NCBI RefSeq assembly: GCF_003334765.1
Contig: NZ_QOWT01000003.1
Reading direction: 5' to 3' (one strand)
DNA: 64,000 bases
DNA from: Escherichia coli
GTDB lineage: Bacteria; Pseudomonadota; Gammaproteobacteria; Enterobacterales; Enterobacteriaceae
The notes under the pieces were generated by a model, which was given only the letters and a program-made list of their open reading frames with translations, searched no databases and was not told the DNA's origin. Of this stretch, positions 23,906 through 24,088 are shown one piece after another; the stretch's first letter is position 1; each line of letters begins with the position of its first letter. The position numbers and the translations under genes are program-made.

Positions 23906-24088
23906 GAATCTCCGAGATGCCGCCGCAGGCTGTAACCCTTGAACCCTTGGTTCAAGGTGAATGTGTCGTCGCAGTTTTAAGGCTTCTCGGACGGACCGAG
24001 CATGCTCACCAACCGCGGAGCGCCACATTCTTGTGGTATGAAATATCGGCTCAGGGGACTGGCCCGCTTGCGAACATCTCAGAGAAAT
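23906..24088 (-). ncRNA. ssrS: 6S RNA
   Basis: Reverse complement reads ATTTCTCTGAGATGTTCGCAAGCGGGCCAGTCCCCTGAGCCGATATTTCATACCACAAGAATGTGGCGCTCCGCGGTTGGTGAGCATG..., which I recognise as E. coli 6S RNA. Confidence 0.9.

Follow-up and report, generated by a model that had tools for sequence, protein, structure and literature searches.

The ssrS-fau (ygfA) transcription unit of Escherichia coli: processed 6S RNA, Rho attenuation and the probable translation start of Fau

There are transcripts that provide, at the same time, a stable RNA and a protein. An example is the thrU-tyrU-glyT-thrT-tufB operon, where a stable RNA is cut out of the 5' portion of the transcript and the protein is encoded in the 3' portion; there, RNase P and RNase E free the tRNAs, and the mRNA carries a Shine-Dalgarno (SD) sequence of the normal type. 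The ssrS-fau (ygfA) unit resembles it in that a stable RNA, the 6S RNA, is cut from the 5' part of a protein-coding transcript, and differs from it in having an SD-less start only 18-21 nt from that RNA and a Rho terminator inside the open reading frame. [quoted passage not shown] There, ssrS and ygfA are co-transcribed and 6S is processed out of the precursor (literature including PMC3299989 and PMC7641849) and, according to a passage of PMC3299989 that cites Chae et al. [quoted passage not shown] This gene arrangement extends well beyond the enterics. In Coxiella burnetii, ssrS lies in the 5' UTR of ygfA, and the linkage is highly conserved in gamma-proteobacteria (PMC4064990), while many beta- and gamma-proteobacteria carry an EVE-domain gene after, or instead of, fau (PMC7641849), which E. 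coli does not have. The 6S-1 and 6S-2 RNAs of Bacillus subtilis belong to the same family, share the function of E. coli 6S and, as described in PMC10578484, mature from longer precursors in an RNase J1-dependent manner, but they are not alike in the linkage to the cyclo-ligase gene.

The locus analysed here lies on the minus strand of the window, the term used below for the whole 64-kb stretch of DNA under study. The source is an E. coli chromosome. Several complete genomes match the 1.3 kb around ssrS-fau with 100% identity, and all complete E. coli assemblies compared (5426/5426) contain the ssrS-fau locus. The order on the minus strand is zapA (24459..24130), ssrS, fau/ygfA and sibC/ibsC (23256..23106), with serA on the plus strand beyond sibC/ibsC and the divergent ygfB-pepP on the upstream side. 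This is the order of K-12 (zapA-ssrS-fau-sibC/ibsC-serA), whose 6S sequence is also 100% identical, and the zapA-ssrS-fau synteny agrees with what the literature describes for the 6S locus of gamma-proteobacteria. Only the annotation differs between both loci (a fau of 182 aa from ATG2 in K-12, of 200 aa from ATG1 here), the biology being the same. As a whole, the locus corresponds to the ssrS-fau (ygfA) transcription unit of E. coli in its canonical form, already known and textbook biology, and its features are the following:

24320..24348, minus strand: distal promoter-like element within zapA, TTGCAA-17 nt-TAGAGT, read from the sequence, 8/12 consensus positions; candidate ssrS P2
24130..24459, minus strand: zapA, the upstream same-strand neighbour, which holds the distal promoter-like element (ORF listing and RefSeq)
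24104..24133, minus strand: proximal sigma-70-like promoter, ATGACA-18 nt-TAGAGT with a TG before the -10, from the pattern scan, 9/12; candidate ssrS P1
23906..24088, minus strand: ssrS, mature 6S RNA of 183 nt, with a heterogeneous 3' end that reaches to 23905 or 23903 (Rfam, K-12 identity, fold and Term-seq)
23885..23905, minus strand: spacer between 6S and fau, pyrimidine-rich and SD-less (anti-SD duplex energy and comparison of 63 loci)
23826..23905, minus strand: candidate rut tract of 80 nt, C-rich and G-poor by composition, overlapping fau codons 1-19
23282..23884, minus strand: fau (ygfA), 5-formyltetrahydrofolate cyclo-ligase of 200 aa, preferred start ATG1 (NF007661, TIGR02727, PF01812)
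23828..23830, minus strand: ATG2, the fau start annotated in K-12, most likely an internal Met19 codon

The explanation that best accounts for the whole, with a probability of about 85%, is an ssrS-fau unit whose transcript is processed to 6S RNA and attenuated by Rho, and from which Fau is translated starting at ATG1. The present analysis supplies the identities of the RNA and the enzyme, the lack of an intrinsic terminator and the arguments for ATG1 drawn from species comparison and protein families; co-transcription, processing and Rho termination come from the literature, and we infer the rut assignment and the connection between weak initiation and Rho.

Regarding the RNA, the Rfam model RF00013 (6S/SsrS) matches 24088..23905 on the minus strand over its full length (1-187/187) with 139.8 bits (E = 2.2e-28), far above the gathering score of 46.4 bits. 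The alignment contains two non-standard pairs only, and the structure line of the covariance model displays the closing stem, the central unpaired region and the terminal stem. The preliminary description had placed 6S RNA at 23906-24088 of the minus strand and proposed an Rfam search as a check; the search bears it out, and the coordinates are exactly those of the 183-nt K-12 ssrS annotation, the sequence (24088..23906) being 100% identical to b2911. Its 3' end is given somewhat differently by different sources, since PGAP annotates 184 nt instead of the 183 nt of K-12 and the dominant Term-seq 3' end falls at K-12 position 3056168, equivalent to 23903 of the window (PMC7815308 supplement). 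The folding is stable (MFE -80.5 kcal/mol, z = -5.75), with none of 200 shuffled sequences folding as well. By virtue of its identity to the K-12 RNA, ssrS also carries the template region for pRNA synthesis, which initiates at U44 in E. coli; nucleotides 25-44, GGCCAGUCCCCUGAGCCGAU, are the complement of the published pRNA. [quoted passage not shown] As such, it would mimic an open promoter and sequester the sigma-70 RNA polymerase in stationary phase.

The protein-coding half of the unit raises a less settled question: where does Fau start? The open reading frame ending at 23282 contains two in-frame candidates, ATG1 (23884) and ATG2 (23830), separated by 54 nt (18 codons). The first lies 21 nt from the 3' end of the 183-nt RNA, 20 nt from that of the 184-nt PGAP version and 18 nt from the Term-seq end at 23903. 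An ambiguous ygfA start (23884 versus 23830), about 20 nt from 6S, had already been noticed in the preliminary description, and it is real, with both ATGs in frame and the annotations disagreeing. PGAP starts fau at ATG1 in the four E. coli genomes sampled (4/4), yielding a CDS of 603 nt (200 aa) in three strains and of 597 nt in the divergent fourth one, whereas the curated record of K-12 MG1655 (b2912/NP_417387.3) starts at ATG2 and comprises 549 nt and 182 aa. The predicted N-terminus is (M)TQLPELPLTLSR in the first case and (M)IRQR in the second, and the public protein clusters of Fau include forms of 198-200 aa, 182 aa (P0002 and others) and 248 aa. The ambiguity can largely be settled in favour of the ATG at 23884, by the arguments given below.

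A scan of species-representative genomes retrieved 68 loci, 63 of which (all from Enterobacteriaceae) have a blastn-detectable 6S directly upstream, and these 63 were aligned, beginning at the 6S 3' end and continuing into fau. In every locus (63/63) the ATG1 column reads ATG. The ATG2 column does so in only 14/63, clustered in Escherichia, Salmonella, Pseudocitrobacter and Citrobacter amalonaticus/sedlakii, and is occupied elsewhere by CTG, TTA, CTA, GTT, ATC, CTC, CAC, ACC, etc., so that the Met is replaced by Leu, Ile, Val, His, Thr, Phe, Tyr or Gln in the remaining 49 loci. Furthermore, the column entropies for codon positions 1/2/3 are 0.70/0.42/1.24 between ATG1 and ATG2 and 0.51/0.42/1.46 in the 30 codons that follow ATG2, a similar periodicity which indicates that the stretch between both ATGs evolves as coding sequence; the only length change within it is an in-phase indel of 6 nt, present even in the divergent E. 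coli strain. Upstream of ATG1 the situation is the opposite: spacers of 15, 18, 19, 20, 21, 22, 23, 24 and 25 nt occur in 60/63 loci, a variation out of phase that does not keep any frame and therefore marks the spacer as non-coding. The same arrangement reaches the Pasteurellaceae, where four loci have a 6S match of 124-131 bits in Rfam and the only plausible ATG of the cyclo-ligase is found 12-16 nt after it. In total, the cyclo-ligase gene is directly preceded by 6S in 63 Enterobacteriaceae and four Pasteurellaceae loci, as in the linkage of the Coxiella type. From Colwellia demingiae, a fau homologue with 52% identity was retrieved without any 6S match at the gathering score in the 1.5 kb upstream, which fits the report that Alteromonadales have lost the zapA-ssrS linkage (PMC7641849).

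The spacer comparison is also informative about the third Fau form in circulation. When the ORF is called mechanically (23282-24028, minus strand), it reaches back to an ATG within the 6S gene, at 24028, and encodes 248 aa, and cluster P0001, which corresponds exactly to this form, contains 2588 member sequences. Its size suggests that automated callers often produce a Fau overlapping ssrS, and that the 248-, 200- and 182-aa starts all circulate. The 248-aa ORF was discarded as a gene-caller artefact, given that the spacer length is out of phase between species and that the domain starts at residue 13 of the 200-aa form.

The product of the ORF is, as deduced from its sequence, 5-formyl-THF cyclo-ligase, the folate-recycling enzyme for the ATP-dependent conversion of 5-formyl-THF into 5,10-methenyl-THF. 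The 200-aa Fau matches the equivalog NF007661 with 447.1 bits (cutoff 343), this profile itself comprising 198 positions, and is homologous to the solved enzymes 2jcb, 1ydm, 1sou and 3hxt (E values from 5.6e-23 to 2e-16). The family domain covers residues 13-194 of the 200-aa form, both in TIGR02727 (180.6 bits against a cutoff of 84.9; profile 1-182/182) and in PF01812 (model 1-186/186, E = 8.2e-48), whereas the 182-aa form matches TIGR02727 at positions 8-182 only and loses positions 1-7. What do those residues do? In human MTHFS, K10 and R14 contact the ATP phosphates. The segment S12-R13-Q-E-I-R17 of E. coli aligns with A9-K10-R-S-L-R14 of this human enzyme (3hxt), the counterparts of R13 and R17 in the Aquifex sequence K3-S-E-L-R7 (1sou) are K3 and R7, and the region of R17 aligns with S3-Q-L-R6 of B. 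subtilis (1ydm). The conservation of these positions was evaluated in an alignment of 131 diverse homologues taken from 50%-identity clusters, the best 120 homologues of a wider listing all having at least 77% identity and being unfit for family-wide conservation. R17 is conserved in 129/131 homologues, equalling the C-terminal glycine-rich motif R144, G146, G148, G150, Y152 and D153, which is 99-100% conserved and which the window protein also has. A basic residue (K or R) occupies position 13 in 80% of the homologues, while position 19, that of the ATG2 Met, is Met in 1%, and only one of the 131 starts after residue 18. A start at ATG2 would consequently deliver a protein deprived of R17 and of K/R13, and the complete domain, with its N-terminal helix and the basic [KR]-x3-R motif, is found only in the 200-aa form initiated at ATG1. 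On these grounds, ATG1 (23884) is very probably the main physiological start of fau, producing the 200-aa enzyme, and the K-12 reference start is probably 18 codons too short, which is the point that this analysis adds to the known picture. This has practical consequences, as the enzyme domain of a 182-aa K-12 Fau would be missing its first helix and the near-invariant R17, and cloning, modelling or tagging K-12 Fau from ATG2 may give a truncated and possibly inactive protein.

Nonetheless, two other readings of the start deserve consideration. An improbable one is that Escherichia, Salmonella and some Citrobacter initiate at both ATGs, giving the 200-aa enzyme together with a 182-aa proteoform of altered or no activity. 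The genus-wise clustering of the 14 species (out of 63) that keep ATG2 would agree with it, and so would the abundance of internal in-frame starts in E. coli reported by the Ribo-RET study; yet ATG2 shows neither an SD nor any other initiation signal, and its column varies like that of a neutral internal residue (mainly Leu, Ile, Val or Met in near relatives; Gln, Thr or His in distant ones). Slightly less probable still is that the K-12 annotation is correct and Fau (182 aa) is made from ATG2 only, with the 75 nt between 6S and ATG2 acting as an untranslated leader and Rho site. Apart from the curated K-12 record and the public clusters of 182 aa (P0002 and others), this option has in its favour that the region of ATG2 is slightly less structured than that of ATG1 in the fold of the precursor (predicted unpaired probability of 0.62 versus 0.49) and that a C-rich leader, if untranslated, would make an ideal rut. 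Against this, 49 of the 63 related species have neither ATG2 nor another start codon nearby, the supposed leader exhibits codon periodicity and in-phase indels only, the resulting protein would lack the near-invariant R17 and the conserved K/R13 and would truncate the Pfam/TIGRFAM domain, and ATG2 is not preceded by an SD either (-0.7 kcal/mol). With regard to published ribosome and proteome data, no fau/ygfA entry was found in the TRAINSPOTTER and Salmonella riboproteogenomics supplements, and ygfA is not mentioned in the text of the Ribo-RET preprint.

Initiation at ATG1, the preferred start, would take place without the help of an SD and would probably be weak. The best anti-SD duplex before ATG1 has -1.5 kcal/mol, compared with -7.3 for zapA and -4.9 for serA, and a duplex of -4 kcal/mol before ATG1 is reached in 0/63 loci, where the spacer between 6S and ATG1 is 75% pyrimidine on average. 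The context is unfavourable also because of the very stable 6S helix alongside. The GGAG of the 6S 3' strand (CUCGGAGAUU) was considered as a possible SD and rejected, as it lies some 24-27 nt away from ATG1, takes part in the pairing of the closing stem and is missing in Pasteurellaceae. Fau would then be translated from ATG1, 18-21 nt after the 6S 3' end, with ATG2 read as an ordinary internal Met codon. A lack of SD was also observed for the neighbouring ygfB (24621-24627, plus strand; divergent from zapA), where no detectable SD precedes either candidate ATG, the one at 24621 in the ORF listing or the one at 24627 implied by the 579-nt RefSeq CDS.

Concerning transcription, the region 23000-24700 was scanned for promoter and terminator patterns. 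The -10 box of the proximal promoter-like element ends 16 nt before the mature 6S 5' end, a position that predicts a start about 9 nt upstream of 24088 and, with it, a precursor requiring 5' trimming. The distal element, whose 8/12 consensus positions leave it below the threshold of the scan, would place transcription initiation around 24312, some 224 nt ahead of 6S; Kim and Lee, in 2004, reportedly located the ssrS P2 at about this position. Both elements contain the same unusual -10 hexamer, TAGAGT (24104-24109 and 24320-24325, minus strand). An extended pairing between the 5' leader of the P1 transcript and the 3' trailer was considered too, and it is absent from the predicted fold of the precursor. 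No terminator pattern was detected by the scan between zapA and ssrS, and no intrinsic terminator (hairpin plus U-tract) between ssrS and fau; the sole terminator pattern, at 23455-23440, is deep within fau, and such patterns are no more numerous than in shuffled sequences. A precursor RNA would arise from one promoter or two, located inside zapA or upstream of it, and the 6S RNA of 183-186 nt would be cut and trimmed out of this precursor. The dicistronic ssrS-ygfA transcript with processing, as suggested in the preliminary description, is experimentally established in the literature, and the scan is in line with it. As for a strong terminator between ssrS and ygfA, which was named there as the observation that would speak against co-transcription, the intrinsic kind is absent between the genes, but a Rho-dependent one operates inside the 5' part of fau, meaning that co-transcription is attenuated and read-through is partial. 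Finally, it is hardly credible that fau is driven mainly by a promoter of its own instead of by ssrS read-through, with the proximity reflecting mere synteny, because, although the 6S-fau inserts of 100-126 nt in three Klebsiella/Enterobacter loci harbour a TGTATTA[AC]ACT block that is possibly a -10-like element, no promoter-like site was detected within or after ssrS in the pattern scan of the window, the genes are only 21 nt apart, co-transcription is reported in the literature and the ssrS-fau linkage is kept as far as Pasteurellaceae and Coxiella.

These inserts were observed in Klebsiella spallanzanii, Enterobacter sp. 10-1 and a Klebsiella MAG (L032:1398-1500, L036:1375-1500 and L049:53-153), the block being conserved in all three. 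Simple pattern scans yielded no convincing promoter or terminator in those of L032 and L036. Their existence indicates that the tight 6S-fau spacing is not obligatory, and they might uncouple fau from ssrS in the lineages concerned.

Returning to the attenuated ssrS-fau transcript, the sequence that follows 6S has the composition expected for Rho loading. The 80 nt immediately after it (23905..23826) contain 27 C and 11 G, and this C/G ratio of 2.39 is reached by just the top 0.3% of the 80-nt windows on both strands of the 64 kb. The ratio is at least 1.5 in 63/63 loci and at least 2 in 57/63. A Rho attenuator is characterized by a C-rich, G-poor, weakly structured tract of about 80 nt without an intrinsic terminator, and here a tract of this composition is present and there is no hairpin plus U-tract terminator from 24088 to 23456. 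Loss of termination with bicyclomycin or in rho mutants, and its reconstitution in vitro with Rho, are further hallmarks, reported by Chae et al. 2011 according to PMC3299989. Due to this rut-like composition, the 80-nt tract is likely the Rho-loading (rut) site. Termination in the work of Chae and colleagues (2011) is said to occur around 90 nt downstream of 6S, and the tract ends just before that zone. In the absence of a hairpin after 6S, RNA polymerase would run into fau and Rho would stop most of the transcripts within the first ~100 nt; the stopped transcripts would be trimmed back to the 6S end by 3' exonucleases, and those escaping Rho would constitute the fau message.

The Term-seq data can be looked at in this light. 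In the supplement of PMC7815308, one very strong 3' end, at 23903, stands alone in the sense direction, with none recorded within fau, and this pattern is consistent with Rho-terminated ends having been trimmed back to the 6S stem. The text of the Dar and Sorek Term-seq paper does not mention ssrS. On the opposite strand, a strong antisense 3' end with about 140,000 reads appears at K-12 3056785, equivalent to 23286 of the window and thus at the last fau codons (PMC7815308); it probably belongs to a transcript from the ibsC/sibC side converging on fau.

How would translation and Rho influence each other in such a short space? With initiation at ATG1 being weak and SD-less, little Fau would be made and, we infer, the nascent RNA would be left bare for Rho; the loading of ribosomes would favour read-through. 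Going one step further, ribosome loading at ATG1 might compete on each transcript with Rho and the 3' exonucleases, so that every molecule becomes either fau mRNA or 6S and the outputs of Fau and 6S are reciprocally coupled to translational capacity; a corollary would be an error of 18 codons in the fau start annotated for K-12. This idea is drawn from the SD-less ATG1 being held 12-25 nt from 6S in Enterobacteriaceae and Pasteurellaceae and from the first ~19 codons being the conserved C-rich tract, and taken as a whole it is speculative and rather unlikely. It would nevertheless turn an SD-less start adjoining 6S, within a conserved rut-like tract, into a model in which Rho and translation set the 6S:Fau ratio.

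Some other elements of the window can be mentioned. Immediately 3' of fau, the SIB_RNA model RF00113 matches 23106-23256 (minus strand) with 133.8 bits, corresponding to sibC, and the gene for the 19-aa IbsC toxin lies on the strand opposite to it. In some E. coli, such as O157:H7, the sibC/ibsC region holds a second copy of an Ibs-family toxin and is around 390 nt longer. Farther away, Rfam matches were obtained for naRNA4/CssrE, a REP-derived nucleoid-associated RNA, at 37599-37676 (minus strand, 75 bits), and for ES036/CssrF at 9992-10034 (minus strand, 47.3 bits).
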